The notes under the pieces were generated by a model, which was not told the DNA's origin, made no database searches, and worked only from the letters and a program-made list of their open reading frames with translations. The translations under genes and the position numbers were made by a program. A stretch of DNA of 32,000 nt, from positions 360,001 to 392,000 of the forward strand of contig CP023991.1 of the NCBI GenBank assembly GCA_003516025.1, in the 5' to 3' direction. Of this stretch, positions 10,514 through 30,164 are shown in pieces (position 1 is the first letter of the stretch; each line of letters opens with the position of its first letter). Source of the DNA: Candidatus Saccharimonadota bacterium (GTDB lineage Bacteria > Patescibacteriota > Saccharimonadia > Saccharimonadales > UBA4665).

Positions 10514-12601
10514 TGACTGGTTAACGAATGCCAACTCCATTTGCAGGAGCCAGGCCCGTTGCTCTGCCTGCTTGGTAAAATGTGACGCGCCGCTTAAGGG
10601 GACGAACTGGTACGGGCAATTGTGTTCGCCCAGTATCCGCAGAAGTTCCAAGCTGTTGCCGGGTAGGACATTATCGTCGCTGAGGCCATGGATTAACATG
10701 ATAGGCCGGTAGGCTTTACTGGCGGCTTTGAGCAATGATGATTTATCGTATGCTTGCGCCTGTTCATCCGGATTGCCGAGATAGCGTTCGGTGTAGTGAG
10801 TATCGTACAAACGCCATTCCGTAACGGGCGCGCCACTGATGCTGGCGTGGATATCATGTGGGTACAAAACGGACAAAAATGCCGACAAATAGCCACCGAA
10901 CGACCAGCCGCGAACGCCGACGCGCGAGCCATCGAGGTCGGGAAACTGTACGAGCGCGTCATGTAATGCCGTGATCTGGGCGGCGGCAACCTCGGTGATC
11001 AGGTCGCTATGAATTTGACGTTCCCACTGCAAATCACGTCCCGGCGTGCCGGGCCCATCAACCGATAAAACGGCATAACCCTGGTCGGCCCACCATTGGG
11101 ATTCCAGATAGCTCCTGGAGCTGAACATTACTTCCTGATGGTGTGGTCCGCCGTAAACCTGTAGTATAACCGGTAATTTCGTCCCCGCGGCATGGTTTGC
11201 GGGCAGTACCAGGCTGGCCTGTAGTTTCTCGGTACCAACTGTGAAAAAGCGAGGTTCCGGCCAGCTTTTCGGGGCGGCAGCATGTGATGTTATGCGTAAC
11301 GCCTGTGGCTTGCCGGTGGCTCCGGATTGAAGCAGATACTGGCGCGTGCCACCAGCCATAACGGCTCCGGTAATGAAAATGAGGTCGTTGGAAATCAGCG
11401 CTGAAAATAATCCACCGGCCGGTGAAAGTTGCAAGTTCTTATTACTGCTGATGTGTTGAGCGAAAACCACCCGTTCCTTAGGATCGGGCGAGGCGGTGTA
11501 AACCACCCAGTCGCCGCAGGTGCCGATAAAATCATCAACATGATGGTCGGTGGGAGTTATAGCGGCGCCGTCGTATGAAATCCGGCGCTTTTCCTGGCTG
11601 GTCAGGCTAATGATGTGCCCGTCGCTATCGGCGTAAGGGAGCGGCTGCAATATGTCGACCCAGACCTTATCTTCTATATCATGCACGGAAACAGTCGCAT
11701 TATCTTCGATAACTTTGTGTAATTGCAACCGGCGTTGGCCGCGGCTCTGCAGGCTGATATATATGTCATTGGTTCGCCACTGGACATTGGTGAGATAGGG
11801 AAGAGCGGTTTTATCCCAAACTATTTCCTGGCGTTCGGATGAGTTCAGATGAAGTCTGAACAGCGAGACGACGGCGTTCGGTGTACCGGCGGCCGGATAC
11901 TTGAAGCTGTGTGGTGTTTCCAAGGAATTTTCCGAAACGGCGTAGGCGTCATGGACGGCAGTTTCATCGACACGGGCGGCTAGTAAATCCAGAGAGTCGG
12001 GGGACCACCAGTAACCGCGGTACCGCTCAAATTCTTCGGAGGCGGCGAACTCGGCCCGGCCCCAGAAAATGGTTTCCGATTCGTTGGCTACCAGTAGTTT
12101 CGGCTCGGCGTCACTGTGGCTGGCAACGGCCCACAACCCTTCGTGATTAACGAAAGCGATATGTGAGGAGTCAAAGCTGAAGCGCGGGTCGAATGCCGAA
12201 GATACATGGGCAAACTGCTCGGCTTGCAGCGTCCGCGTATTGATAAGCCAGAGACTGCCATTATAGGTAAAACACAGCAGTTTACCATCTTTCGAGGACG
12301 TATAACTGGTGATGCCCATCGAAGTCTCACGCAGGCGCTCGCGCTGGCGTTCTTCTTCGGGTGTCAACTGCGTGTCCGCGCGGTGGGTCAGCGGATCAAA
12401 CACTAACTGTTCGCTTCCGCTGCTGATTTCCAGCCGCCACAGGCTGTTGACGTTTGAAGTGCCGCTATCGGAACGGGTGAAATATATATACGCGGCGTCG
12501 TCGTTCAGCGTAAAGTTACGCGGCATGCCAAGGGTATACGAGTGGGTCCGGGCGAGTTCCAGGGCCTGTGTATCTAAGTTCATCGCTTGTATTGTACGCA
12601 A
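10496..12601 (-). CDS. S9-family serine peptidase (dipeptidyl-peptidase IV / prolyl oligopeptidase-like)
   Basis: 701-aa ORF. N-terminal beta-propeller-like region; C-terminal alpha/beta hydrolase with nucleophile elbow GWSFGGY, plus downstream D and H candidates (HGLSDDNV, SGASHF). Confidence 0.9.
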   Translation of the reverse strand: MRTIQAMNLDTQALELARTHSYTLGMPRNFTLNDDAAYIYFTRSDSGTSNVNSLWRLEISSGSEQLVFDPLTHRADTQLTPEEERQRERLRETSMGITSYTSSKDGKLLCFTYNGSLWLINTRTLQAEQFAHVSSAFDPRFSFDSSHIAFVNHEGLWAVASHSDAEPKLLVANESETIFWGRAEFAASEEFERYRGYWWSPDSLDLLAARVDETAVHDAYAVSENSLETPHSFKYPAAGTPNAVVSLFRLHLNSSERQEIVWDKTALPYLTNVQWRTNDIYISLQSRGQRRLQLHKVIEDNATVSVHDIEDKVWVDILQPLPYADSDGHIISLTSQEKRRISYDGAAITPTDHHVDDFIGTCGDWVVYTASPDPKERVVFAQHISSNKNLQLSPAGGLFSALISNDLIFITGAVMAGGTRQYLLQSGATGKPQALRITSHAAAPKSWPEPRFFTVGTEKLQASLVLPANHAAGTKLPVILQVYGGPHHQEVMFSSRSYLESQWWADQGYAVLSVDGPGTPGRDLQWERQIHSDLITEVAAAQITALHDALVQFPDLDGSRVGVRGWSFGGYLSAFLSVLYPHDIHASISGAPVTEWRLYDTHYTERYLGNPDEQAQAYDKSSLLKAASKAYRPIMLIHGLSDDNVLPGNSLELLRILGEHNCPYQFVPLSGASHFTKQAEQRAWLLQMELAFVNQSLQVLA

Positions 12602-15126: not shown

Positions 15127-15213
15127 GCGGATGTGGTGAAATTGGTATACACGCTAGTTTCAGGTACTAGTGGGCGCAAGCTCGTGGAGGTTCAAGTCCT
15201 CTCATCCGCACCA
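15127..15213 (+). tRNA. tRNA-Leu (anticodon CAG), type II with long variable arm, CCA encoded
   Basis: Acceptor GCGGATG/CATCCGC, anticodon arm CTAGT-TTCAGGT-ACTAG, T arm GGAGG-TTCAAGT-CCTCT, 87 nt. Confidence 0.93.
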
Positions 15214-15217
15214 AACT

Positions 15218-15250
15218 AAAAGCCCAGGCATTTGTCTGGGCTTTTAGTTT
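15218..15250 (+). terminator. Rho-independent terminator after tRNA-Leu(CAG)
   Basis: AAAAGCCCAG-gcatttgt-CTGGGCTTTT followed by AGTTT. Confidence 0.8.
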
Positions 15251-15365
15251 GGTTTGAGCGAACATGAAACTCCAGTCGCGGAGGTGAGAATTGCCAGTGG
15301 GAATTCTCAAGGCAATCTTCCGATGCCAACTATGTTGGCAATAGTGAAGTTGCGGGGCTACGAAA

Positions 15366-15397: not shown

Positions 15398-15443
15398 TAT
15401 TGACATAAGAGTTATAATATATTATACAGCCACTGTCAATACC
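15398..15443. repeat. Inverted-repeat element, copy 1 (TATTGACA-28 nt-TGTCAATA)
   Basis: Shares TATTGACATAAGnGTTATA (18/19) and CTGTCAATACC (11/11) with copy 2 at 18882-18921. Confidence 0.7.
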
Positions 15444-15501: not shown

Positions 15502-17088
15502 ATGGCATCACGATTACCAACTCCCGGTTCAGACGATGGTACTTGGGGTGATATCCTCAATGACTTCTTAAGCCAAGCCCATAACACCGATGGTTCACTT
15601 AAGCCACTCACACAGTCACAAATTCAGAATCTCACAGCCGACCTGGCCGTTAAGGCCGGCACTGCAGATCTCAACGCTAAAGTCAGTAATAGCGATCTTG
15701 ATACTAAAACTGCTGCACTAGTTGGTAACGCAAGCAGTACCACAAATAGCGCCCTGAGGGCGGCCTACGTCAATCTTGATAATCTGCCTGTGAATCCGCG
15801 CGACAATCCAGCCTGGAACCCAGCGCCTGGAGCGGATAATGGTGCGATGGTACAAGTAATCCTGGACAACTTATATGCTAACGGAGGAGGAACGCTGTAC
15901 CTGAATACGGTACTCAACACAAGCGTGGCATTAACTACGGGTAGCGGCGTTCGTATTATCGGTTCAAATCCGTTTGTTTCAGTTATTCGAGCACTGTCCG
16001 CCTTTCCAGCTAACACGCCAGTTGTCCGACTGGATCGCTCGGGTGGTGTTACCCCCGAGTTTTATAACCGATTAGAATCCATTACCATTGACTGTAACGA
16101 TATCGCTGATACTGGTGTTTACTCACAAAGTTGTCAAGAACAGGGCGGGCTGATTGATTGCCGGATCGTTAAGTGGCGTTCTAAAGGCATTCATTTAAAA
16201 GGCTCAGCAGTTATGCACTGCAATATGGATGACCTATGGGTTTACTCTTCTACGCAGGCCAGTCCTACTGGAGCGGTAGCCTTGACTATGGAGCAACTTG
16301 GTGGCACGGTCTCGGTACGTCGAGGCTCATTTATTAACACGGCAAATACTGCTGCATCTCAGGCGAATGGTGTTTATGTGCTTGGTTCCACGGCCGTCGC
16401 ATTCGATACTGTGCACTTAGAAGGGGGATCGATTGTATTAGATAACTCTAACGCGTCCGTCACCTCGGCCACCGGTCATTCCACGGTGCCTTCTTTAATT
16501 CGAGCAACTACGGCCACGAGCAGTGTCGAATGGAAGAACATTAGCCGGATGGGCTCGACGTATACGATCGAGGACAGCACTTCTGGAACCGCGCAATCGT
16601 ATACGGCAACGTCTGGTTCAACGGGTAACGGCGGGCTGGTAATCGGAACTAACGCCACTCTCGCCGATCTGCGGGTGATTTCGTCGGCAGGTAAATCGGG
16701 CACCGTTTCAATAACTGACTGGCTATCTCCAACCCTGGCGATTCTGGCGCGAGTACTGCGCTCGGGCAACATTGAATCGCGCGGCGACCGCTTCGTTCGA
16801 CGTAATGATGGCACTGGTGGCTACACTATTTCTAAATTAGACGGCGCAGTCCAGTGGGAAATGCTATGGGACAATTCAACCAGTAACTGGCTGCTTAGGA
16901 ATGCAGCAGGTACGAACGCTCTCGCTGTTACGCAAGCTGGGGCGATGAAGTTGTCCGTGTTTGTTTCGGCTAGCAGACCGTCGGCGGCGTCTTCTGGGCA
17001 AGGCGCAATGATTTTTGACTCGACGTTGAACAAGCCTGTGTGGTCTGACGGGACTAATTGGCGTGATGCAAGTGGTACTATCGTCTAA
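15502..17088 (+). CDS. Tailspike/tail-fibre-like protein with predicted right-handed parallel beta-helix (pectin-lyase fold)
   Basis: 528-aa ORF. The N-terminal LPTPGSDDGTWGDILNDFL motif and C-terminal GAMIFDSTLNKPVWSDGTNWRDASG motif resemble, from memory, phage tail-fibre / pectate-lyase-superfamily proteins. The central part is G/N/S/T-rich and repetitive, like PbH1 repeats. No signal peptide is visible. Confidence 0.5.
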   Translation: MASRLPTPGSDDGTWGDILNDFLSQAHNTDGSLKPLTQSQIQNLTADLAVKAGTADLNAKVSNSDLDTKTAALVGNASSTTNSALRAAYVNLDNLPVNPRDNPAWNPAPGADNGAMVQVILDNLYANGGGTLYLNTVLNTSVALTTGSGVRIIGSNPFVSVIRALSAFPANTPVVRLDRSGGVTPEFYNRLESITIDCNDIADTGVYSQSCQEQGGLIDCRIVKWRSKGIHLKGSAVMHCNMDDLWVYSSTQASPTGAVALTMEQLGGTVSVRRGSFINTANTAASQANGVYVLGSTAVAFDTVHLEGGSIVLDNSNASVTSATGHSTVPSLIRATTATSSVEWKNISRMGSTYTIEDSTSGTAQSYTATSGSTGNGGLVIGTNATLADLRVISSAGKSGTVSITDWLSPTLAILARVLRSGNIESRGDRFVRRNDGTGGYTISKLDGAVQWEMLWDNSTSNWLLRNAAGTNALAVTQAGAMKLSVFVSASRPSAASSGQGAMIFDSTLNKPVWSDGTNWRDASGTIV

Positions 17089-19009: not shown

Positions 19010-19096
19010 GCGGATGTGGTGAAATTGGTATACACGCTACCTTGAGGTGGTAGTGGGCGCAAGCTCGTGGAGGTTCAAGTCCTCTCATCCGCACCA
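19010..19096 (+). tRNA. tRNA-Leu (anticodon GAG), type II, CCA encoded
   Basis: Identical to the tRNA at 15127-15213 except for the anticodon arm (CTACC-TTGAGGT-GGTAG). Confidence 0.93.
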
Positions 19097-19137: not shown

Positions 19138-19214
19138 GGGTGATTAGCTCAGTTGGCTAGAGCATCTCGTTTACACCGAGAGGGTCGGGGGTTCGAGTCC
19201 CTCATCACCCACCA
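19138..19214 (+). tRNA. tRNA-Val (anticodon TAC), CCA encoded
   Basis: Acceptor GGGTGAT/ATCACCC, D arm AGCTCAGTTGGCTAGAGC, anticodon arm TCTCG-TTTACAC-CGAGA, T arm GGGGGTTCGAGTCCC, 77 nt. Confidence 0.93.
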
Positions 19215-19221
19215 AAACAAG

Positions 19222-19250
19222 AAGGTTCCGCAAGGAGCCTTTTTGTTTTG
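19222..19250 (+). terminator. Rho-independent terminator after tRNA-Val
   Basis: AAGGTTCC-GCAA-GGAGCCTT (8-bp stem with one G-U pair, tetraloop) followed by TTTTGTTTTG. Confidence 0.8.
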
Positions 19251-19363
19251 GTTTACACTTTTCGCTGTGTACAGCTCGTCAGCATGACTTTCCCCGGATG
19301 GAGCTTAAGGTATTCATGGAAGTGTATCGACAGGTAATTCTTAGGTATGGTTGTTTGGTGGTG

Positions 19364-20768: not shown

Positions 20769-21806
20769 TCAGACAAGTCTGCTCTGGAGAACGGCGTGCA
20801 CCTCTTCGGCGTGCGGGATGTACTTGACGCGCTGGATCTTCTTCTCCTCTTCTTGTTGCAGGAGGGTAGCGATCCGGAACGTGCCGTACTTCAGGGCCTT
20901 GTCGGTGGTCTTCTCCTCGAGGTCGATGCTCTTGATGACCGATCGGACGAACGGCTGATCACTCGAGTTGATGAAACACCAGGCCCAGGCCGGCGGCATC
21001 GTGGTCACGAAAATCTTGAACTTCGTGACGGCGAATACCGTGGATTCCCAGGCCGTGATCCGCAGGCGGATCATGAACACGGCGAGCAGCAGTAGGATGA
21101 CGCAGAAGCGCCAGACGACCGACCAGAGCAGCGGCGGCACCGACACGAAGAATAGCCCCATAACCGCGAAGGCCAGCAGCCAGAACAAGCTGAAGGCTGC
21201 GATCACGCACGGCGGAACGAGCCGCTTCAGAAGGACGATCTTGTGCTTGCGGGTGATGCACTCGATGATGTCGTCCTGTTCGACGATCTCGCGTCCGTTG
21301 TTGTCGGTTCTGCGCCGGGGCGCCAGCTTGGTGCGGAAGCGGTCCACGATGTCGTCGGGTGTGTCCCACTTGCGTTCCACGACGACCTCGAGCTTGTCTG
21401 CGTCCGGCTGGTTGCGGCGGTGCTCGGTGGCGGCACGCCGGAGGTAGAACCAGATCAGGCAGGTGTAGACCAGCCAGCTGATACTTCCGGTGATGACTAG
21501 CACTTGCGCGGGAAGATAGATCAGCCCCGTAAGAAAGCCGACCGCCAGCATCATGCCGAAGCCTGCCGGTACGGCGATCAACAGCGGATGCTTCCCCCAC
21601 TGGAGGTAGCGTGGCTCTTGAGGCTTTTTCTCCTTCGGAACCACCATGCCGGCGACGGCAGCTGCCGGTAGGGGTGCGGTGTCGTCGGGGCGGATCGGCT
21701 CGACCGGCTTGTCGGCCTGGCCTGCCGCCTGCTCACGGGACTGCATACGTGCGGCCACTGATGCTCGCGGATCGGAAGGCGGACGAAACCACTGGCTGTC
21801 GGGCAT
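20769..21806 (-). CDS. Polytopic membrane protein with C-terminal bacterial PH (bPH/YdbS-YdbT-like) domain
   Basis: 345-aa ORF. P/A-rich cytoplasmic N-terminus, two TM hairpins, and a C-terminal segment (WESTVFAVTKFKIFVTT...IKSIDLEE...KYGTFRIATL...VKYIPHAEEVHAVL) that resembles bPH domains. GGAG lies 9 nt upstream of the ATG. Confidence 0.55.
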   Translation of the reverse strand: MPDSQWFRPPSDPRASVAARMQSREQAAGQADKPVEPIRPDDTAPLPAAAVAGMVVPKEKKPQEPRYLQWGKHPLLIAVPAGFGMMLAVGFLTGLIYLPAQVLVITGSISWLVYTCLIWFYLRRAATEHRRNQPDADKLEVVVERKWDTPDDIVDRFRTKLAPRRRTDNNGREIVEQDDIIECITRKHKIVLLKRLVPPCVIAAFSLFWLLAFAVMGLFFVSVPPLLWSVVWRFCVILLLLAVFMIRLRITAWESTVFAVTKFKIFVTTMPPAWAWCFINSSDQPFVRSVIKSIDLEEKTTDKALKYGTFRIATLLQQEEEKKIQRVKYIPHAEEVHAVLQSRLV

Positions 21807-21969
21807 GTCTCAACTCCATTCTGTGAAGGAACATTGTCTCTACGGTACTTCCGGAGACGGTGCCTTATTTATATCAATCTATAAGATTTTTGGCTAGCAT
21901 TTAAATATATGACATAGTACACTTATACAAATTATTAGAAAGCTGGTAAAAAATACTTTATTAAGACAC

Positions 21970-22203
21970 TTAAGAATATAAGTTTGCAAATCGTTTATTG
22001 TTCGATTTCAATACTGATTCCTCTATTTCTTGGTCTTTAATTACCCGTGATCGCATCAGCATTGAAACCGGACAGAAAATCCGGCCTTGCTGCTCGCCGT
22101 CCAGTTTTATTACTGTCGAAGGCTTGTAGCCGCGAGGAAAACGTACGTTAACAGTTTCATCGGTAAAATAGAATCTTTTACATCGTTCTTCAGTATGTCC
22201 CAT
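21970..22203 (-). CDS. Hypothetical small protein (77 aa) encoded in an AT-rich patch inside the island
   Basis: Open for 77 codons from ATG 22203 in sequence that looks below 40% GC, where stop codons should be frequent. No SD and no family recognised. The start lies only 18 nt from the divergent ParA-like ATG. Confidence 0.3.
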   Translation of the reverse strand: MGHTEERCKRFYFTDETVNVRFPRGYKPSTVIKLDGEQQGRIFCPVSMLMRSRVIKDQEIEESVLKSNNKRFANLYS

Positions 22204-22220
22204 CACTGAAAGGGGGAACC

Positions 22221-23486
22221 ATGGTATCGGGATCATCCGACTCCGACCGTGGGTGGCAAGGGAGAGATCTGGGCAGACCGCGCCAGATAACCGCAGACAG
22301 CACCATCCAGACCCAAGGGGGAACGAACGCAATGGACAGTGAGTCCGAACGTCAGGTACCACCCGGCGGCTACACAGGCCTGCCGAAGCTCGAGTGGAGG
22401 ATGCGCCGGCTGATCGACCGTGACAAGGCCGTGCCGCCGAAGCCCAGCAAGAAGCAGCGCCGGCAGCTCGATCTCGAGGAGCGTCAGCTCAGCGAGAAGC
22501 AGGCCGCCGACGCGGAGTCGCAGAAGAGGGACCAGCTGGAAGCTGAGTCCATCGAGCGCATCCTGCAACTGGCCGACGAGGTCAAGCACGCCACGTGCGT
22601 GTCGGTCAACTCCAAGGGGAATGGCGGCACCACCACGACGCTGGTCAACATGGCCTGCGTCCTGGGCTGGCTGACCCGCACCCTGATCGTGGTCGTCGAT
22701 GGCAACCCCGCCGAAGGAACCTGCGCAGCTCTGCTGGGCAAGGACCACGGCGCGACCATCAATGTCCAGCAGGTGTCCAGCCAGCTGGAAGCTCTTCGCC
22801 GCAACGCGCGCACCTTCATCGAGGGTGCACGGCCCAACCGTTGGAACGTCCGCACTGTTGCGGCGCTCTCGACGGTGGCTGCGGAGAACAACCCGCTGCT
22901 CGAACCTGACAAGGTCCGGGATCTGATCCAGGCCTGCCAGGAGCACTTCGAGTTCGTCTTCGTCGACACGCCCAACGTGCTGACGAGCGAGGCGGGGCTG
23001 GCGGCTGTTCGCACTGGCGACGTGCTGGTGTTCCCGGCCAACCGGCAGACCAAGTTCTCGCTGCGGCAGCTCGGAACCTCGATGCAGTCGCTCCGCGAGA
23101 ACGGCCTGAAGGACAAGGTCGAGAACTCAGTGGTCGTCATCACCAACCTCGAACCCGAGGATGAGCTGGACGGCTACCGCAAGTTCATGAACCGCACCAA
23201 GATGGACGACTCGGTCATCCAGACCTACGACCAGGACTTCCAGGGCGTGTTCATGGGTGTGCCACACGACGATGTCATCGCACGTGACGATGTCGTCGAT
23301 GTCGAGGCCTGGAGCCAGGAGACGCGTCAGGCGTACTACGACCTGATCATCGCCTGGCTCGAGCAGGTCCTCAAGGAGCGCGAGCACCACGACAGCATGC
23401 CCGTTCCGCCGGAACTGGCAGCACAGAACGGCCACTCCGACAACCGGAGCATGGTCACCACGCACTATCCAGGGGGAGAGTCATGA
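22221..23486 (+). CDS. ParA/MinD/CpaE-like protein with degenerate deviant Walker A and a charged N-terminal extension
   Basis: 421-aa ORF. SKGNGGTTTT (22611-22640) occupies the position of the canonical deviant Walker A motif KGGxGK[ST], as in the typical xKGGvGKTT form; a ParA-like Walker B region follows (FEFVFVDTPNV...GDVLVFP). GGGGGAAC lies upstream of both ATG 22221 and the alternative ATG 22332. Confidence 0.65.
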   Translation: MVSGSSDSDRGWQGRDLGRPRQITADSTIQTQGGTNAMDSESERQVPPGGYTGLPKLEWRMRRLIDRDKAVPPKPSKKQRRQLDLEERQLSEKQAADAESQKRDQLEAESIERILQLADEVKHATCVSVNSKGNGGTTTTLVNMACVLGWLTRTLIVVVDGNPAEGTCAALLGKDHGATINVQQVSSQLEALRRNARTFIEGARPNRWNVRTVAALSTVAAENNPLLEPDKVRDLIQACQEHFEFVFVDTPNVLTSEAGLAAVRTGDVLVFPANRQTKFSLRQLGTSMQSLRENGLKDKVENSVVVITNLEPEDELDGYRKFMNRTKMDDSVIQTYDQDFQGVFMGVPHDDVIARDDVVDVEAWSQETRQAYYDLIIAWLEQVLKEREHHDSMPVPPELAAQNGHSDNRSMVTTHYPGGES

Positions 23487-23866
23487 AGGAGCTCTACGCG
23501 CAAGCCGTCGTGAACGTCTACGACGTTCTGGCAGTCGAAGCGCCGGCCACGCCAGCGCCCGGAGGCAACATCCAGGACTACGTGCCAACCAGCCCGAACT
23601 ACGGTCCGTGGAGCGGGTTGGTCCAGCCGGTGACCTTCGTCGGAGGCATCCTGCTTGGGCTGGCGGCGTTGATCTCGCTGCTGTTCCTGTTCTGGAACCT
23701 GTTCAAGCTGGCCGTCTCACAGGACGAGGACAAGGACCGCGGCATCATGAGGTCGATCAAGAAGAACCTCATCATCTTCGTGATCTGCGGCTTCGCCAGC
23801 ACTGTCCTGCTCTCGTTCTTCTTCGGCCTGCTCCAGCAGGTGGTCAACTCGTTCGGCTCGTCCTGA
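23483..23866 (+). CDS. Small two-TM T4SS-associated membrane protein (VirB2/VirB3-like topology)
   Basis: 127-aa ORF. Two hydrophobic helices (VTFVGGILLGLAALISLLFLFW and LIIFVICGFASTVLLSFFFGLL) around a charged loop. ATGA overlap with the upstream gene. Confidence 0.45.
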   Translation: MKELYAQAVVNVYDVLAVEAPATPAPGGNIQDYVPTSPNYGPWSGLVQPVTFVGGILLGLAALISLLFLFWNLFKLAVSQDEDKDRGIMRSIKKNLIIFVICGFASTVLLSFFFGLLQQVVNSFGSS

Positions 23867-23965
23867 CCGGGACGAGCAACGCTGCTACGCGGCTGCTCCC
23901 GGTTCTGGCAACTTTGCCGGGGGCAGCCCGCGTGGCCTGACATCTATCCGTTAGGGAGGTGAATC

Positions 23966-25057
23966 ATGGCAAATCCGGCATGTTGGATCCTGCCAGGGCT
24001 TTGTTCGAATGGACAAGTCGCTGGTGAGGGTAGCTGGCTCGGTGACTTGCTCTCGTTGTTTGACAGCGATGCCGCCGGCGACACCCTGCGTAGTGCTCTC
24101 GAGACCGTTCAGTCGACCCGACAGTTCGACCTCGGACTGGTGTCGTTCGTCACTACGTACCAGCAGCTGTTCGGCCTGATGCTGATCTTGTCGGTGCTAC
24201 TGTTCTCCTGGACGCTGCTTCGCCTGGCTATCAGCAACAGTAACGGCGAAGAAAGCGTTGCTGGCCTGTTGGCGCCGTTCAAGATCTTCGTTTTCGGCTC
24301 ATTCCTGCTCGTAGCGGGGTCTTTTATCCGTTACCTGGGTGAGCTGGCGACGTGGATCGCGAAACAGTTCCTGCGGGAACAGAACTGGGTCGACGACGTC
24401 ACCCGCGGCTTTTCGTTCGGCGGTTTCTGGGTCCGCATCATCGGCAAGGTGCTCAGCGGACTGCTTCGGTTGGAGATCGTTCCACTGGAGTTGTGGGTGC
24501 CGCTGTTCATCCTGATGGGTTTGATTACCTATAGTTTGACCGCTTTCCGGTCGAACTACGTCATGGGTAAGCCGAGCCGCTGGATGTGGGCTCTGTTACT
24601 GACCGCGCTGACCCTCAAGCCGGCACTGACGCTGTACTTCGGTATCGGCGGCGGGCTCATCATGAACAGTGATGCTCCTGAGGGCGACAAGTCGGTTATG
24701 GTGCTGGCGCTGCTGGCTACTTCGCTTTTTCTCTGGATGTTCGTCTTCATGGCGTTCAACAAGAGGATTCAGGCGTATGTAGACAACAGGGTCCAGGTCC
24801 GGGGTGACGTGCGCAATCGTCCTTCCGGAACTGGTCGCCAACAGGTGGAGGTCAACCGGACGTTCAACGCCCGGCAGTCCAACATCAACCGGTCGGCGCA
24901 GGGCAAGCACGGCCTACGGTCGGCACGACATGCGACCACGGACGCGTCACTGGGGGCCCTCGCCAAGAAGGCAGCCTCGAGTGGACATCCTGCGGTCGGC
25001 ACCACGGTCGTCATCGTCCACGCGTTCTTCAAGGGACGACGCAAGAAAAGCCCGTAG
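23966..25057 (+). CDS. Polytopic membrane protein, VirB6/TrbL-like T4SS channel component
   Basis: 363-aa ORF with about 6 TM segments and a basic C-terminal tail. GGAGGTG SD 5 nt upstream. Its position between the small TM protein and the VirB3/VirB4-like genes matches Gram-positive T4SS order. Confidence 0.5.
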   Translation: MANPACWILPGLCSNGQVAGEGSWLGDLLSLFDSDAAGDTLRSALETVQSTRQFDLGLVSFVTTYQQLFGLMLILSVLLFSWTLLRLAISNSNGEESVAGLLAPFKIFVFGSFLLVAGSFIRYLGELATWIAKQFLREQNWVDDVTRGFSFGGFWVRIIGKVLSGLLRLEIVPLELWVPLFILMGLITYSLTAFRSNYVMGKPSRWMWALLLTALTLKPALTLYFGIGGGLIMNSDAPEGDKSVMVLALLATSLFLWMFVFMAFNKRIQAYVDNRVQVRGDVRNRPSGTGRQQVEVNRTFNARQSNINRSAQGKHGLRSARHATTDASLGALAKKAASSGHPAVGTTVVIVHAFFKGRRKKSP

Positions 25058-25086
25058 GAATCACTGCGACTTTCTGAGGAGGTGAA

Positions 25087-26673
25087 ATGACTGGAGAAAG
25101 TCAGGATCTGACCCCTTTTCGCCTGGATAGTCCGGGTGTTCGGAAGGGTCGGATGTTCCGCGACGCGGGAATGGCTCAGATCGCATGGATGGTCACGATG
25201 TTTCTGGCTGTCTGTGTATCAGGCGTCCTGCATCTGCTGGTACCGGCTCTCGTGGCGGCAGCGCTGTTCTTTTTGGCGCTGCCTGGCGAGGACGGACCCT
25301 TCTTCAACCTGCCGCTGACATGGTGGCACGGATGGAGGATCAAGCGCCACGACAATGTTGTCTGCGAGGTAGATGACGCGGGACAGGCTGTTGGCGGGGC
25401 TATGCCTGAACTACTCGACGACTTGTTCGTCGATGACGTTTTAGGGCAGTTCGCCACCCTGTACGACGAATCGGGAGACACTGACACTGTCTACTGGAGC
25501 ACGGACGGGTGGGAGTACGCCAACGCTGACATGCCTCAGCGCCATGCCGCTCAGATGCAGGAAGCCGCCGCACTCAAGACGGCTATCTCGCAAACGGACG
25601 ACAACATCGCCTACGGGATGATGAATGGCCGGAGGCAGTTCGATCCGTCCGAGTGGGTTGAGGATCTGCGGCAGAATTACCTGCATGAAGACTTTGAGGA
25701 TGACTCGGGGTTGGACGCCGGTGACCGCAGGGCCAAGGCCAACCTGGACAAGGTGTTCTCTGACATGGTGGTGCGCAGACGTTCCAAGGGCCTGGCGCTC
25801 ATCGCCGTGACTGTCCCCCGGCCCCCTGAATGGGCAAAGCTGGTCGACAGTCCTGAGATATTCACCGTGGATCAGCTACGCCGATCGTCGCTCTACCGTG
25901 TGCTCAGCTCACTGGAGCGAGGTCTAGAGGAGGCTGGTTTCAAAGGTCTGAAGTTGTTTGGCAGGGAACAGTTGTTCCGGTACCTGTTCGGGGCGTGGAA
26001 CGTTCACTACCTGACGGGCGAGACGATTGCCCGCAACGAGACCTCTGGGTACTATCAGCTTCCCGGTGCCGACCCGACCGACCCGCCGCAGCTTGGCGAG
26101 GATGGTCGTCTCGTGCACGTGCGGCAGCCGTTCCCCCACCGAGTCAAGGTGGTTCGGAGCGGCCGCAGTGGCAGACGGTACGACACATTGCAGATGGATG
26201 ATGGAAGCTACCACTTCGTGGTGGTCGTCCGGAATTTCCGACGCAAGAGTGGCCTGCCCGGCGCTACCTACCCGCTGATCGTTGGACCGCACAGTCCTTG
26301 GATCATGCACACCCAGAACTGCAACACCGCTTCACAGCAGCTTGACAAGTTCCTGTTGCGAAAGAGGCGGAATCTGCTGATCGGTTGGTTCTCCAACCGG
26401 CGTGGTCTGGGAACGATGTACGAAGAACTCGCTGATCGTGAGCGGGTCGAATCCGAGAGGGGAGCGATCGACAAGATCCACATCTCAGGCTCCAAGCCTA
26501 TCCGTTCTGATCATCGCTTCACGGGAAGCGCGACATCACTGGAGGAACTTGGCAAGGTCTACGACGACCTGGTCGCGACTCTGCGACAAGAAGAACTGAG
26601 TTTCTACCGCGTGAAAGGACGTGCCAGATTGTTTCCGGCATTCCTGTTGGCCGTACTTGGCCCGCGACTGTAG
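25087..26673 (+). CDS. T4SS protein with a VirB3/PrgI-like N-terminal TM hairpin fused to a large cytoplasmic domain (resembles, from memory, actinomycete SCO6880-family proteins)
   Basis: 528-aa ORF. TM hairpin (IAWMVTMFLAVCVSGVLHLLVPALVAAALFFLAL), no P-loop. GGAGGTG SD. Lies immediately upstream of the VirB4-type ATPase. Confidence 0.45.
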   Translation: MTGESQDLTPFRLDSPGVRKGRMFRDAGMAQIAWMVTMFLAVCVSGVLHLLVPALVAAALFFLALPGEDGPFFNLPLTWWHGWRIKRHDNVVCEVDDAGQAVGGAMPELLDDLFVDDVLGQFATLYDESGDTDTVYWSTDGWEYANADMPQRHAAQMQEAAALKTAISQTDDNIAYGMMNGRRQFDPSEWVEDLRQNYLHEDFEDDSGLDAGDRRAKANLDKVFSDMVVRRRSKGLALIAVTVPRPPEWAKLVDSPEIFTVDQLRRSSLYRVLSSLERGLEEAGFKGLKLFGREQLFRYLFGAWNVHYLTGETIARNETSGYYQLPGADPTDPPQLGEDGRLVHVRQPFPHRVKVVRSGRSGRRYDTLQMDDGSYHFVVVVRNFRRKSGLPGATYPLIVGPHSPWIMHTQNCNTASQQLDKFLLRKRRNLLIGWFSNRRGLGTMYEELADRERVESERGAIDKIHISGSKPIRSDHRFTGSATSLEELGKVYDDLVATLRQEELSFYRVKGRARLFPAFLLAVLGPRL

Positions 26674-26706
26674 AAGCTCCTACCGATGACACTACGACGT
26701 GCGCCC

Positions 26707-26745
26707 GCTACGGTGGTGGTTGTTCCACTAAACCACCACCGTAGC
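26707..26745 (+). terminator. Perfect 15-bp stem hairpin after the 528-aa gene (terminator/attenuator-like, no U-tract)
   Basis: GCTACGGTGGTGGTT-gttccacta-AACCACCACCGTAGC, 34 nt after the stop codon. Followed by the palindrome AGTTGAAGTTCAACT and a T5 run. Confidence 0.5.
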
Positions 26746-26890
26746 AAGCACTTCAGACAAGCAGTTGAAGTTCAACTTTTTGTCCGAAATGCCACAGGGG
26801 CATTCGAACGTTAACAACTGAATTACTCCTCCCTGTGCACTTCGAGCCGACTTACATCATACCGACGACACACGAGAGCAGGTGAAAGAT

Positions 26891-28330
26891 ATGGCAAGGT
26901 CAGTACCGACGCGGGGCAGAAGTCACGACACGACAGTTGACGACACCACGCAGTTCGGGCCCACCCACACCACTGGTGGTGCCCAGAAGCGCGGAATACC
27001 ACTCTTCGTCAACGCCGACACCAACGAACCTGAGCCATTCGACCCCGCGGAACTGAAGGCTGAAGGCCGGATCAACTCCACCGTCCTTGGTGTTCTGGGG
27101 AACAAGGGTCACGGCAAGACAGCCACCTCAATCGCTATCGCACTGCGCTTCAGGTGGCGGCGTGCAGGCAACCGCAGGATGTCAATCTGTATCAATGACA
27201 TCAGGCGCAACAATGCCCGGCCGGAGTACGAGAAGCTGTGTGAATACCTTGGCGTTGAAGAGGTGTCGCTCGGCAACTTCCGGCTGAACATGCTGTCGCA
27301 GGATCTGAAGCTGAAGCCGTCGGAGCTTCTGACAATGGTTGCCCGCAGCTTGCAGTTCGAACTGGCGCGGCAACTGACTACCAAGGAGCTCAAGGCTCTT
27401 CGGTACTCGTTGAAGATGGTCCTCGAATTCTTTGAAGACGATGCCGAGCTGTCCACGCTCATGGCATGCATGCGTCGAATGAATGAGGGGATTGCCAGGC
27501 GCTTCCAGAATCAGATCGAGCAAGGCAAGGGTGACAAGTACGCTCGTCACCTCGCTAGGCTTGAAAGGGTTCTGGACACGAAGCCCCAGATCACTCCGGG
27601 ACTACTGGAAACGGCGCTTGAACTGGCTGACACCATCGAGAACCTTCTTGATGGCGAGTATGGCGAAATGTTCGGCGGGGATCACTCGCTGGCAAGCGTC
27701 ATGCATACGAACAAGGGACTCGTGGCGTTCGACTTTTCCGAACTGTCGGACGACGCGCTGACCCAGGTCCTGGCGATGATGTGGCAGGTCAAAACTTCGG
27801 CCATGCGCCGCGGCGACCACGACCTGTACTATGACATCGAGATTCACGACGAGAGTTACACGTTGTGGCGCAATCTCGAGTACGCCAGGTCGATGCACAA
27901 GTTCCTGAAGCAGGTCCGCGCGACGGGGACGTTCATCGTCATGAACACGCACCGCCTCAGTGACTACGAGACGGTAGGCAGTGAGAGCAGTGAGCAGTAC
28001 AAGCTGGCCACCAACATGATCGATGACATCGACATGTGGCTGCTTGGACGGCACACGCCCAGTGCTGCGGAAGACACCGCCAAGCGCCTCGACCTGACGG
28101 ACGAGGAAAAGCAGCGGTTGCTTCACCTGGAGCGCGGCGTCTGGGGACTGAAGATCGGCTCCGAGCCTGTTCGTTGGGTTTACATCGACCTGACGGACGA
28201 TGAAGCCGAAGTGACGTACTCCGACGACGCCAACCGCGAGAACACCGCTGAAGGCATGAACGAAATGCTCGCACGGGCGCTCGATGAAGAAGCTCAACAA
28301 GCCGCCCAGGAAGACCTGGCCATGGCTTAG
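26891..28330 (+). CDS. VirB4/TrsE-type T4SS ATPase (C-terminal ATPase-domain-sized)
   Basis: Walker A GNKGHGKT (27101-27121), Walker B-like IEIHDESYTLW (D-E at 27848-27853), downstream FIVMNTHRLSD motif. AGGTGA SD before ATG 26891; the ORF track starts at GTG 26882. Confidence 0.7.
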   Translation: MARSVPTRGRSHDTTVDDTTQFGPTHTTGGAQKRGIPLFVNADTNEPEPFDPAELKAEGRINSTVLGVLGNKGHGKTATSIAIALRFRWRRAGNRRMSICINDIRRNNARPEYEKLCEYLGVEEVSLGNFRLNMLSQDLKLKPSELLTMVARSLQFELARQLTTKELKALRYSLKMVLEFFEDDAELSTLMACMRRMNEGIARRFQNQIEQGKGDKYARHLARLERVLDTKPQITPGLLETALELADTIENLLDGEYGEMFGGDHSLASVMHTNKGLVAFDFSELSDDALTQVLAMMWQVKTSAMRRGDHDLYYDIEIHDESYTLWRNLEYARSMHKFLKQVRATGTFIVMNTHRLSDYETVGSESSEQYKLATNMIDDIDMWLLGRHTPSAAEDTAKRLDLTDEEKQRLLHLERGVWGLKIGSEPVRWVYIDLTDDEAEVTYSDDANRENTAEGMNEMLARALDEEAQQAAQEDLAMA

Positions 28331-28356
28331 CTACCGTGACATGAGGGGGAACTAAG

Positions 28357-28998
28357 GTGTCACGATCCAGGAAACGTCGATCGACTATCAGGTCGAGCCG
28401 CAGACGGCAGAATGGGCGAAAGCTGCTCTACTTCGTGCTGGCAGCACTACTGATAGCCGCGCTGGTGATGTTGCTGTCCTCAAACGACAGGATTTCATCC
28501 CCACCCGATGATCAGGCGACATCATCCACGTCCGCGCCCAACGAGGAACCGACGGCAAGCCAGCCTTCGGAGCCAACACCCGACGTGGAGCAGTTGAAGG
28601 ACAGTCTCGTCCGTTTCACGGAGGTCTACTACCGTATCCTGCCTTCGGACGGGCCGGATACTCGCAGGTCAGCCGTCGAACAACTGGGCATACCCATGTC
28701 CGAGACGGCGATCGACAGCATGGACTTCACGGTTTATGCCTACGAAGATCCCTTTGGCGCTTCAGATCGCTCTGAGGTGACTGAACAGGGAACGGTTGAC
28801 CTGCCGGCGATGCAGATACTGTCGGAGCTGGACGATGGAAAGCTGTTGTACGTAACAGCTCCCGTTGTACTGACTTCGACAGGACCAGACGGGCACACCG
28901 AAACCAGCACTTTCCTGGTGGGGACTGTCTGGCAGTGGGTGTCCGATGATGGCCGATGGGCTATGACCGCGTTTGGAGAGGAGGGATCATTGCAATGA
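28357..28998 (+). CDS. Membrane-anchored T4SS accessory protein (VirB8/TcpC-like topology)
   Basis: 213-aa ORF. Basic N-terminus, one TM (LLYFVLAALLIAALVMLL), S/T/P-rich linker, ~130-aa globular domain. GTG start preceded by GGGGGA. Confidence 0.4.
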   Translation: MSRSRKRRSTIRSSRRRQNGRKLLYFVLAALLIAALVMLLSSNDRISSPPDDQATSSTSAPNEEPTASQPSEPTPDVEQLKDSLVRFTEVYYRILPSDGPDTRRSAVEQLGIPMSETAIDSMDFTVYAYEDPFGASDRSEVTEQGTVDLPAMQILSELDDGKLLYVTAPVVLTSTGPDGHTETSTFLVGTVWQWVSDDGRWAMTAFGEEGSLQ

Positions 28999-30164
28999 AA
29001 AGCGCTGTGTCGGCTGTTATCGCCCTCATACTGCTTCCCATAGCACTGGTTGCTTCCTTTGCGATCGGTCTGACCGTTGGTGTTGGCGCGACGTCAGGTG
29101 ACGCTTCGTGTGTACCTGCTATCGCCGCTGACGCCAGTCCTCCACCGCCCGCGACCAGTAAAACGGCCGCCGGGACCGACCAGGAGGCCATCTTCCAGGC
29201 AGTTGTCGCCAAAGCCAATGGTGACAACAAGGTAATCCTGTCCATGATGCAAGGTTCATGGCTGGAAAGCCGCTGGAACCGCAATGCCTCTGACGGTGAA
29301 GCCTACGGGCCTTACCAGATCCAGATGCCCGGCGTCGTACATCCTGACGTCAGCATCGCTGAGGCTAAGGACCCCGTCTTCTCGACGAACTACATGTACG
29401 AGGAGTATGCCGAGAAGGCTCAGGCGGTCGATCCGAACCTCTGGATCACCGATCCGCAGTCAGCCGCGGAACTGACGGCGTATCGGGCGGAGCGGCCGAA
29501 GTACATCTACAGTGACAGCCGAAGTCAGGGGCCGGCGAAGGTTGCCGAAGCCTTTCGTGCCGCTGCGGACCTCTTGCAGGCCCACGGTATCTCGCTCGAC
29601 TTCGGTCAAACGGCTGCCGCACCGGCCGCGCCTGATGTACGGACGGTCGCTGCCCGTTCAGAGCCGGTCCAGCAGTGTGCTGCGGACGAACAGAAAGGAA
29701 AGGAGGCAGATGCTGCGCAGGTAAGCCTGGTTTCCAGTGGCTGGACTAAGCCGGTCACGGCTGACGGTGTGCGCTGCACCTCCGGTTTCGGGCCGCGCTG
29801 GAGTACGCAGCACAACGGCGTAGATCTCGCCAATGGTCGACTCGGCACGCCGATCTATGCCGCCGCCGGTGGCACGGTTATCGCGTCGGGGCCTGCCAGT
29901 GGCTTTGGTTGGTGGATCGTCATCGACCATGGCAATGGTATCGTCACGATCTACGGGCACATGAATGGCAAAGACCTCCTGGTCTCTGTCGGAGATGTCG
30001 TCACGCCTGGTAAGCCGATCTCGCGCATCGGCAATGAAGGTCAGTCTACTGGCCCTCATCTGCACTTTGGTGTCAAGGAAGGCGGCATCAGCGGCAAGAG
30101 CATCGACCCCGAGAAGTTCATGGCTGAGCGAGGTGTTGCCTTGTGCGACGGCTCCGCTGCTTAG
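28995..30164 (+). CDS. Bifunctional cell-wall hydrolase: lytic-transglycosylase-like domain plus M23 metallopeptidase (VirB1/PrgK/TcpG analogue)
   Basis: ATG 28995 forms an ATGA overlap with the upstream stop, and GGAGGG lies 9 nt upstream. N-terminal TM. SLT-like LESRWNRNASDGEAYGPYQIQ. M23 motifs HNGVDLA, IDHGNGIVTIYGH, GPHLHFGV. Confidence 0.8.
   Translation: MKSAVSAVIALILLPIALVASFAIGLTVGVGATSGDASCVPAIAADASPPPPATSKTAAGTDQEAIFQAVVAKANGDNKVILSMMQGSWLESRWNRNASDGEAYGPYQIQMPGVVHPDVSIAEAKDPVFSTNYMYEEYAEKAQAVDPNLWITDPQSAAELTAYRAERPKYIYSDSRSQGPAKVAEAFRAAADLLQAHGISLDFGQTAAAPAAPDVRTVAARSEPVQQCAADEQKGKEADAAQVSLVSSGWTKPVTADGVRCTSGFGPRWSTQHNGVDLANGRLGTPIYAAAGGTVIASGPASGFGWWIVIDHGNGIVTIYGHMNGKDLLVSVGDVVTPGKPISRIGNEGQSTGPHLHFGVKEGGISGKSIDPEKFMAERGVALCDGSAA

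Follow-up and report, generated by a model that had tools for sequence, protein, structure and literature searches.

A conserved, covarying RNA candidate between the two genes of a VirB4-like pair in a type IV secretion-like operon of a Saccharimonadota bacterium

The stretch analyzed here, referred to as the window, comprises 32,000 nucleotides (nt) of a Candidatus Saccharimonadota bacterium (assembly GCA_003516025.1, contig CP023991.1, positions 360,001 to 392,000 of the forward strand) and carries a type IV secretion system (T4SS)-like operon at 22221–30164 (+), delineated by open reading frames (ORFs), domain scans and gene order in relatives. Within this operon, a gene for a 528-amino acid (aa) membrane protein (25087–26673, +) is followed by one for an ATPase resembling the C-terminal domain of VirB4 (26891–28330, +). 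As judged from comparison of related sequences, the spacer between them (26674–26890, +) holds a real and conserved structured RNA candidate of ~135 nt which is absent from Rfam. Its conservation, covariation and strand bias are demonstrated below. We lean towards reading the element as a cis-acting regulatory or processing RNA module that would uncouple the ATPase cistron from the genes upstream.

The 528-aa protein was characterized from the ORF list, hydropathy and a check for a Walker A motif. Its sole hydrophobic stretch (residues 27–69) is long enough for a transmembrane (TM) hairpin, and no Walker A motif was found in its sequence, the large domain being devoid of a P-loop. The ATPase carries the Walker A motif GNKGHGKT at residue 70 (479-aa numbering) and an invariant D-x-E-x-H-D-E block. 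Both ORFs are thus present as described in the first-pass annotation, which had placed a spacer of 208 bp between them. The ATPase ORF (26882–28330, +) encodes 482 aa if a GTG start is used; the database copy (P0004) has 479 aa, and a Shine-Dalgarno sequence AGGTGA (26880–26885) stands 5 nt ahead of the ATG at 26891 (together 26880–26893, +), which is probably the true start. The spacer therefore measures 217 nt rather than 208 nt. Its low GC content was correctly noted (50.7% vs. 59.2% and 58.3% in the flanking genes), as was its exceptional size: the junction gaps along the operon are −4, 99, 29, 217, 26, and −43 nt in order, so that 217 nt is the largest and the remaining junctions are mostly tight, apart from one further gap of 99 nt.

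Read from 5′ to 3′ on the + strand, the spacer begins with the single-stranded motif M2′, TACCGATGA (26681–26689), located 8–16 nt past the stop codon, whose reverse complement, TCATCGGTA, occurs in the operon leader. The 5′ strand of a closing helix P0 (GACGtGC, 26696–26702) pairs with 26806–26812. The hairpin P1 (26707–26745) consists of the perfect 15-bp stem already recognized in the first-pass annotation (26707–26721 / 26731–26745) and a 9-nt loop with a CCAC-type motif; among the perfect short-range inverted repeats of the window, none exceeds it in length. The long helix P2 (26748–26792; strands 26748–26768 / 26772–26792) has at its tip the palindrome AGTTGAAGTTCAACT (26763–26777), which had likewise been pointed out together with the T5 directly 3′ of it; the T-run is the 3′ strand of P2. 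A candidate hairpin P3 (CGAAaTGCC / GGCATTCG, 26785–26806) uses the 3′ strand of lower P2 as its 5′ arm, and the element ends with the 3′ strand of P0 and the conserved tail M1, GAACGTTAACAA (26806–26817). A T-loop, k-turn or C/D-box reading of the motif CCGATGA was judged by eye and discarded, as it is not conserved.

A search for related loci yielded 15 distinct ones, which fall into two or three clades and extend to an ATPase identity as low as 31%; scanning genome, metagenome and viral collections with the ATPase profile added just three loci. A spacer of 150–300 nt is found at this junction in all 15, and the spacers align from just past the stop codon to the tail CGTTAACAA. The element starts 3–16 nt past the upstream stop codon, and the distance from its tail to the ATPase start codon ranges from 17 to 115 nt (a listed distance of 149 nt in locus L001 is an artefact of a mis-called ATPase start). 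The + strand of the spacer folds better than shuffled sequences (z = −4.3; none of 200 as good). Consensus folding with RNAalifold recovers P1 and P2 with compensatory changes in 19 of 31 pairs, and upon removal of the most distant sequence the closing helix P0 also appears, joining GAYG with CRTT. P0 is 97% paired, with one alignment pair (28/191) occurring as CG in four sequences, UA in four, UG in three and AU in one; compensatory changes affect 6 of 13 pairs in P1 and 13 of 18 in P2, the latter being 92% paired. Across a 13-sequence alignment, 92.7% of pair positions are paired, as opposed to 31–46% with slid partners, and 20 of the 37 pairs show compensatory changes. The corresponding covariation score (0.444 vs. 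0.05–0.10) was reached by none of 500 shuffles.

A covariance model of the element, R1, detects it in 14 of the 15 loci as a single strong match each, in every case within the spacer and on the + strand. Scores lie between 101 and 140 bits, with lower values for L007 (63 bits) and for L026 (51 bits, E 1e-9), a locus reached through its SCO6880-like protein. All other matches are weak minus-strand ones (≤35 bits) which represent the same hairpins read in reverse, and R1 found no match on a Streptomyces plasmid or on pGO1. L025 was missed by the model; by eye, its spacer contains two long hairpins, an ACGTGC motif and the tail CCTTAAAC in the same order. The structure suspected in this spacer by the first-pass annotation is thus conserved in homologous loci, and the suspicion holds. 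Rfam 15 matched only three tRNAs in the window, with chance miRNA-hairpin matches in the spacer (E ≥ 0.26), and no family in 11 other loci. The element resembles orphan structured RNA motifs discovered in a similar way by comparative genomics (Rfam “cis-reg” and “sRNA” candidates; PMC5737381) in being multi-helix, covarying, fixed in genomic context and devoid of a known ligand or partner. It differs from them in matching nothing in Rfam 15, in lying between cistrons of a secretion operon rather than in a 5′ untranslated region, and in occurring at only ~15 loci.

The distant clade carries an extra covarying hairpin downstream of the motif (L005, 5885–5935; L006, 3090–3150; L008, 2590–2640; L010, 3060–3125), with the arms CTTCCGCA...TGCGGAGG in L006 and CTCCGAT...ATCGGAG in L005. 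Its 3′ arm resembles a Shine-Dalgarno sequence which is not the ATPase gene's own.

Throughout the alignment, the sense strand is favored, though not proven, as the one that folds. On the + strand, 56 G-U stand against 22 A-C positions, standard pairs number 456 vs. 422 of 505, and the RNAalifold energy is −36.7 as compared to −33.2 on the minus strand. A minus-strand RNA was rejected on these alignment-wide counts and energies.

The 3′ half of the element offers two pairings. P3 can form in all 13 sequences and excludes lower P2, since both helices require the same strand. At one position of this shared strand, the window clade has A and the distant clade G, and by manual reading the partner changes from U to C in both P2 and P3. 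Constrained folding places the P2 and P3 states 2–10 kcal/mol apart, with P3 preferred in L021, L005, and L007. These alternative pairings suggest a putative switch, resting on few independent events.

A further set of observations concerns the 5′ leader of the operon. A leader segment upstream of the ParA-like gene (22124–22166, +) is complementary to spacer positions 26680–26713, ~4.5 kb away, and the match lies ~56 nt upstream of the ParA-like start. The leader contains the window's only other exact copy of the tail motif, M1 ACGTTAACA (22145–22153, +), in the same orientation as the spacer copy, and four bases past it the segment M2 TCATCGGTA (22157–22165, +), the reverse complement of TACCGATGA in the spacer. 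The 5′ strand of P0 can pair with either the leader copy of the tail or the spacer's own. According to RNAduplex, the first ~40 nt of the spacer pair with the leader in all seven loci that hold both regions, giving duplexes of 23–34 bp at −29 to −35 kcal/mol; shuffled spacers equal the leader duplex in 0–3% of trials (13% in L002). In L004 and L005 the leader reads CATTGGTT and the spacer AACCAATG, amounting to two compensatory changes, and the combination CGCACATT (leader) and GATGTGCG (spacer) in L001 is likewise compensatory. In L025 the sequences at the equivalent positions are unrelated, yet form a 14-bp duplex. RNAalifold on joined leader and spacer segments recovered both helices, and in a 6-sequence alignment the leader duplex is 89.6% paired, compared to 24–50% with slid partners. 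The complementarity to the leader is clear; its covariation, as far as these alignments reach, is suggestive only.

The leader belongs to a 414-nt region upstream of the ParA-like gene (21807–22220) which is strongly conserved between the window and L001–L005 and contains several invariant blocks. It includes a hairpin CCGGA...TCCGG (22068–22085) and, by manual reading, a candidate promoter (TTGGCT at 21890–21895, a 17-nt gap, CATAGT at 21913–21918) that was not called by the promoter scan. The region has the appearance of a ~300-nt leader or of a further non-coding RNA. For a related Frankia cluster, Ms1-like RNAs beside the MinD/ParA genes have been proposed in a 2026 preprint.

A regulatory or processing RNA was among the roles offered for the spacer in the first-pass annotation, and this remains the best reading. 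We infer that the element is transcribed and regulatory, along the following lines. The two genes are an actinomycete-type pair, encoding an SCO6880-family protein and an ATPase of the VirB4 C-terminal domain type, in a relaxase-less chromosomal T4SS-like cluster, where in this rare lineage the ~135-nt structured RNA would have taken the place of the usual overlapping junction. The spacer looks like a lineage-specific insertion because the homologous genes overlap by 1 nt in the Streptomyces plasmid L023. The RNA would consist of P1 and P2 with the less certain P0 and P3, presumably within the sense-strand operon mRNA, and lower P2 and P3 would be alternative pairings. Its 5′ single-stranded motif and the 5′ strand of P0 may pair with the operon's own 5′ leader, and in this way the leader state would bear on the downstream part of the transcript, be it through stability, processing or transcription read-through.

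More tentatively, leader and intercistronic element may be the two parts of one long-range RNA switch within the operon, a possibility that we regard as clearly less probable than a cis-acting module as such. The unpaired TACCGATGA after the stop codon of the 528-aa gene would then offer a toehold to the leader segment, which lies 4.5 kb upstream and, carrying a second copy of the element's 3′ tail, would displace P0 and tip the equilibrium between lower P2 and P3. How the ATPase message is expressed, processed or stabilized would thereby depend on the leader state and on ribosomes that terminate on the upstream gene. Long-range pairing which gates expression within one transcript is known from the fold-back inhibition (fbi) element of hok mRNA, where 5′ and 3′ ends pair, and from the Min Jou interaction of phage MS2. 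In these cases, as in the window, a short conserved end sequence is complementary to a distant internal element and competes with local helices; the counterpart of this competition here would be the leader and spacer copies of M1, which both vie for the 5′ strand of P0. The window differs in that ~4.5 kb and four cistrons separate the partners and in that the complementarity could be a DNA inverted repeat.

Several points weigh against the cis-acting module and its switching form. An alignment derived from a covariance model is biased towards the modelled structure, and with ~15 loci in two or three clades the compensatory changes may reflect few evolutionary events. Taken alone, the window spacer folds better on the minus strand (−91 vs. 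−71 kcal/mol). The thermodynamic probability of P0 is low in most sequences, and P3 is usually 2–10 kcal/mol worse than lower P2. The covariation of the leader pairing is thin, with three compensatory pairs in six sequences and a score reached by 39 of 500 shuffles. Furthermore, blocking the 5′ 40 nt in silico leaves the accessibility of the ATPase Shine-Dalgarno sequence unchanged, at an intermediate level in all loci. A simple translational switch or riboswitch is not supported by these predictions, since the linker varies between 17 and 115 nt and Shine-Dalgarno accessibility is unaffected. What the element has in common with riboswitches is a conserved, covarying multi-helix structure, that is, structural conservation only; an expression platform is not apparent, given the variable linker, the unaffected Shine-Dalgarno accessibility and the absence of a terminator. 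Sequestration of the Shine-Dalgarno sequence was rejected as well, its in silico effect not being consistent among loci.

The main rival of the cis-acting module is a small RNA, processed or separately made, whose 5′ seed UACCGAUGA would act in trans on the leader of new operon transcripts, thereby feeding back on the ParA-like gene and on the remainder of the operon rather than acting on the adjoining ATPase cistron. We consider it unlikely, despite several features that would suit it: the element is anchored 3–16 nt past the upstream stop codon while its downstream distance is variable, the seed-like 5′ motif is unpaired in the consensus and complementary to the leader ~56 nt upstream of the ParA-like start, and blocking of the 5′ end does not alter Shine-Dalgarno accessibility. 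On the other hand, cis pairing accounts equally well for the complementarity, and there is neither a conserved promoter before the element nor a terminator after it. A window scan and manual reading of the spacers revealed no conserved promoter or terminator; TTAACA as a −35 box was dismissed, as it lacks a suitably spaced, conserved −10 box and as only 17–28 nt lead to the start codon in L004, L007, and L022. The internal promoter envisaged in the first-pass annotation is not supported, in view of the missing −10 box.

Slightly less probable still is a plain operon boundary or attenuator, in which a partial intrinsic terminator or a stabilizer of mRNA 3′/5′ ends would set ATPase stoichiometry with no switching. 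In its favor are long, stable stems, the dominance of lower P2 in the predicted ensembles, and a T5 after the apical hairpin of P2 in the window, L001, and L010. Moreover, actinobacterial terminators often lack good U-tracts. The U-run is, however, not conserved and in most loci missing or broken: there is none in L004, L008, and L007, and L002, L021, and L022 carry CTTCTTAT in its place. A terminator scan of the spacer found none. The palindrome with its T5 was accordingly rejected as a terminator, its U-tract being paired as the 3′ strand of P2, and the terminator-type attenuator of the first-pass annotation is not supported for the same reasons. A plain boundary would also have no need for the conserved unpaired CCGATGA, AGCACTTCAGA, and CGTTAACAA, for a multi-helix architecture or for complementarity to the leader.

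A signal at the DNA level appears improbable. The complementarity between 22124–22166 and 26680–26713 is equally an inverted repeat around the 4.5-kb block from the ParA-like to the 528-aa gene, as would suit an inversion switch or the sites of a DNA-binding regulator; alternatively, single-stranded DNA hairpins could act as oriT, single-strand origin or single-strand promoter of a transfer system. M1 holds the palindrome GTTAAC, and the cluster is T4SS-like. These points are countered by the single orientation in all contigs, by repeats that are imperfect and contain G-T positions, and by the far better tolerance of G-U than of A-C (56 vs. 22 positions), which is strand-specific as for RNA. 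Recombinases, helix-turn-helix (HTH) regulators, relaxases and coupling proteins are absent from the window and the surveyed loci. Domain scans of the window and of the related-locus flanks (2–21 kb, depending on the contig) found no relaxase, coupling protein, integrase or recombinase, and the typical setting of an oriT, a nic region near a relaxase, coupling protein and mobile element, is therefore lacking in both. The oriT relic considered in the first-pass annotation is unlikely, with no relaxase nearby and with sense-strand-specific G-U pairs in the covariation; the conservation of ATCCG, considered by eye as a MOBP-type nic site, does not extend to the distant clade. A dispersed repeat or miniature inverted-repeat transposable element is also unlikely: each locus has a single copy, invariably at this junction, and no other was found in 155 kb.

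Very improbable, finally, is a short leader peptide that would use the conserved ATG in CCGATGA / ATGAAGAAGATGA as its start and control P1/P2 in the manner of classical attenuation, possibly by re-initiation, for although an ATG lies 7–17 nt past the stop codon in 11 of 13 spacers (+24 in L022 and +28 in L007, which lack it at that position) and GGTGG or GAGGTG resembling a Shine-Dalgarno sequence precedes it by 4–9 nt in several, the ORFs span 7–55 codons with frames that differ relative to the helices, neither stop position nor peptide is conserved, and the spacer indels are not multiples of three. With frame and length varying among loci the peptide was rejected, and the spacer region is, by these sequence criteria, non-coding.

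As for the proteins, the downstream one is, according to its structural model, an ATPase of the VirB4 C-terminal domain type without an N-terminal domain. It had no match in Pfam, and its best NCBIfam match was the mycoplasma VirB4 model NF045975 (VirB4_plasma) with 15.3 bits against a cut-off of 590. An AlphaFold2 model from a 10-sequence alignment reached a predicted local distance difference test (pLDDT) score of 79 and a predicted TM-score (pTM) of 0.78. The best Foldseek match in the PDB was the C-terminal ATPase domain of VirB4 from Thermoanaerobacter pseudethanolicus (4AG5/4AG6; target TM-score 0.71, E 1.2e-10 against 4AG6), followed by HerA, DndH, R388 TrwK/VirB4 and TrwB. The model spans about one third of TrwK (target TM-score 0.29–0.34). 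AlphaFold2 and Foldseek thus agree with the likeness to the VirB4 ATPase domain that the first-pass annotation had proposed. A VirB4 N-terminal domain (CagE_TrbE_VirB type, in proteins of ~600–900 aa in total) is not on this polypeptide, which has 479 aa and is blank in Pfam. The curated cut-off of the VirB4 hidden Markov model (HMM) is not reached, and the link to TIGR00929 is transitive only, via the Streptomyces proteins P0014–16, which match TIGR00929 (VirB4_CagE) over positions 437–754 of 792 only. The nearest named relatives are Streptomyces proteins of ~515 aa annotated as “type VI secretion protein”; all of the nearest annotated relatives come from Actinomycetota plasmids, and the window ATPase matches actinomycete ATPases with E-values of 1e-10 to 7e-8 at 24–27% identity.

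The 528-aa protein had no match in Pfam or NCBIfam. Its family is very rare: a set of 5.8 billion proteins contains 3 clusters of it and one of 1.84 billion contains 21 representatives, and a repeat homology search with an 11-sequence profile returned the same three proteins and nothing further. Through intermediate sequences, it is a remote relative of the actinomycete SCO6880 family: the SCO6880_fam HMM (NF042935; 60-bit cut-off) matches P0037 with 30.6 bits (E 1.6e-7, positions 117–463 of 477) and the homologue of L007 with 19.8 bits (E 3e-4), while the window protein itself gave nothing even at E ≤ 10. With SCO6880-type proteins it shares an N-terminal TM hairpin, a size of ~500 aa, the absence of a P-loop and a position directly upstream of a VirB4-C-terminal-domain-like ATPase gene. 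The overlapping or tight junction with the ATPase gene is not found here, the spacer being 217 nt in the window and 150–300 nt in relatives of the clade. Structural comparison added little, as an AlphaFold2 model from a 3-sequence alignment (pLDDT 34.5) was unusable for a fold search. HMM searches of PDB sequences with the family returned nothing, and hhalign of the family against TrsE and TrsD of pGO1 gave no significant match (probability <1%). Faint Pfam matches in family members comprise PrgI (0.014, TM hairpin), CagE_TrbE_VirB (0.03) and TraC_F_IV (0.1). A near-threshold similarity to EccE, a membrane component of type VII (ESX) secretion in Pfam, was observed in the middle domain of the SCO6880 family (L023, 6475–7998; L007, 102–1196; E 2.6e-4 and 4e-4; 21.8 bits against a cut-off of 23.7), which hints at a module shared between actinobacterial T4SS-like and type VII secretion machines.

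The proposal that the two genes together approximate a VirB3-VirB4 fusion is therefore half right. The ATPase half holds as a VirB4 C-terminal domain, the 528-aa half has no significant profile match to the VirB4 N-terminus, and the two-gene layout is already annotated in actinomycetes and is not new. ATPases of this kind occur on 460 actinomycete plasmids, where most of the top-listed matches have a gene labelled “SCO6880 family protein” under the match start. As in the window, these pairs from plasmids and integrative and conjugative elements combine a ~500-aa TM-hairpin protein without P-loop and an ATPase of ~480–515 aa, annotated as “type VI secretion protein,” TraC or ATP-binding protein and covering the VirB4 C-terminal domain only. 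The junction was read in one plasmid, L023 (Streptomyces griseorubiginosus, NZ_CP107769), where a 1-nt overlap (TGATG) joins the two genes and a VirD4-like coupling protein and a MobF relaxase are encoded next. In contrast, the window pair is set apart by its 24–27% identity, by the 217 nt with structured RNA between the genes and by the lack of a coupling protein or relaxase nearby. A neighborhood resembling that of the window, with MinD/ParA, a small TM protein and NlpC/P60, occurs on Frankia chromosomes, where TraC, SCO6880 family, DUF6112, MinD/ParA and NlpC/P60 genes are found together (bioRxiv 10.64898/2026.07.10.737749).

Precedents exist for both aspects of the proposed split. VirB3-VirB4 fusion proteins join VirB3-like TM hairpins to VirB4 sequences. 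A separate protein resembling the VirB4 N-terminus is represented by TrsD of the staphylococcal plasmid pGO1 (MPF_FATA), whose gene directly precedes that of the VirB4 ATPase and which is reportedly a remote homologue of the N-terminal part of VirB4 (PMC12102498, citing Guglielmini et al. 2014). pGO1 differs from the window in that TrsD has 227 aa, TrsE (672 aa) is a complete VirB4 including an N-terminal domain of its own, and the gap is 14 nt. The T4SSs described in Patescibacteria (Saccharimonadia; PMC12102498) are, like that of the window, chromosomal, monoderm-type and relaxase-less, with pilin-like genes and peptidoglycan hydrolases. Their VirB4s are recognized by standard VirB4 profiles, whereas the window ATPase is missed by Pfam and obtains 15 bits in NCBIfam. 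The same study reports no VirB3-VirB4 fusions in Patescibacteria and describes no structured intergenic RNA, the word “intergenic” being absent from its text (PMC12102498).

The remaining genes of the operon, all on the + strand, encode a ParA/CpaE-like ATPase (22221–23486), a pilin-like protein (23483–23866), a 363-aa membrane protein (23966–25057), a lipoprotein (28357–28998) and an M23 peptidase (28956–30164; 1e-27), replaced by NlpC/P60 in relatives. The pilin-like protein matches T4SS_pilin (7.7e-4) and Mbov_0395 (1.4e-5), both under the cut-offs. The operon thereby unites traits of a monoderm (MPF_FATA-like) T4SS cluster: a VirB4-type ATPase, a pilin-like protein, a polytopic membrane protein and a peptidoglycan hydrolase. 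L001–L005, L021, and L025 have a common gene order, namely a divergent membrane protein, the ParA/CpaE-like ATPase, the pilin-like protein, a ~365-aa membrane protein, the gene pair, the lipoprotein and an M23 or NlpC/P60 hydrolase, and the genes beyond the cluster differ. L005 derives from a metagenome-assembled genome labelled Ca. Saccharibacteria, and the window from a contig of ~1.0 Mb. The divergent gene of the window (20769–21806, minus strand) is kept beside the cluster in all loci reaching that far. Its 345-aa product seems membrane-bound and is neither a recombinase nor an HTH regulator, and the homologue in L004 has a bPH_2 (bacterial PH) domain. The database starts of the ParA/CpaE-like gene differ (421 aa vs. 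384 aa), and those annotated in L001–L003 lie ~100 nt downstream of the conserved start site GGGGGAACCATGG.

Elsewhere in the window, the three tRNA genes are located at 15127–15210, 19010–19093, and 19138–19211, the T4SS-like cluster starting ~1.5 kb downstream of the tRNA pair with no integrase there. Long hairpins, probably terminators, directly follow two of them (15210–15253 with 21-nt arms, 95%; 19211–19252 with 19-nt arms, 89%). An AT-rich palindromic region, TATTGACATAAGAGTTATAATATATT (15398–15441), with perfect-looking TTGACA and TATAAT boxes lies upstream of another, unannotated ORF of 528 aa (15502–17088) that has no Pfam match. The UvrC ORF (9026–10513) is short, at 495 aa; GIY-YIG, UVR and RNase H-like domains were recognized in it, the C-terminal HhH region was not detected, and the ORF end overlaps a convergent DPP-IV peptidase gene (10496–12601, minus strand) by 18 nt.

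Taken as a whole, the protein side of this locus is ordinary in that a rare chromosomal secretion cluster joins a known actinomycete family of SCO6880/VirB4-like ATPase pairs. The RNA side is new: a covariation-backed candidate which matches no described RNA family stands where translational coupling of the pair is usual. If functional, it would provide a rare example of a type IV secretion operon controlled internally at the RNA level, an extra RNA family for Rfam-type resources, and a clue to how uncultured bacteria set the dose or timing of a secretion ATPase. Should the long-range switch prove true, it would constitute a previously undescribed intra-operon RNA-RNA control of a secretion ATPase in small-genome uncultured bacteria.

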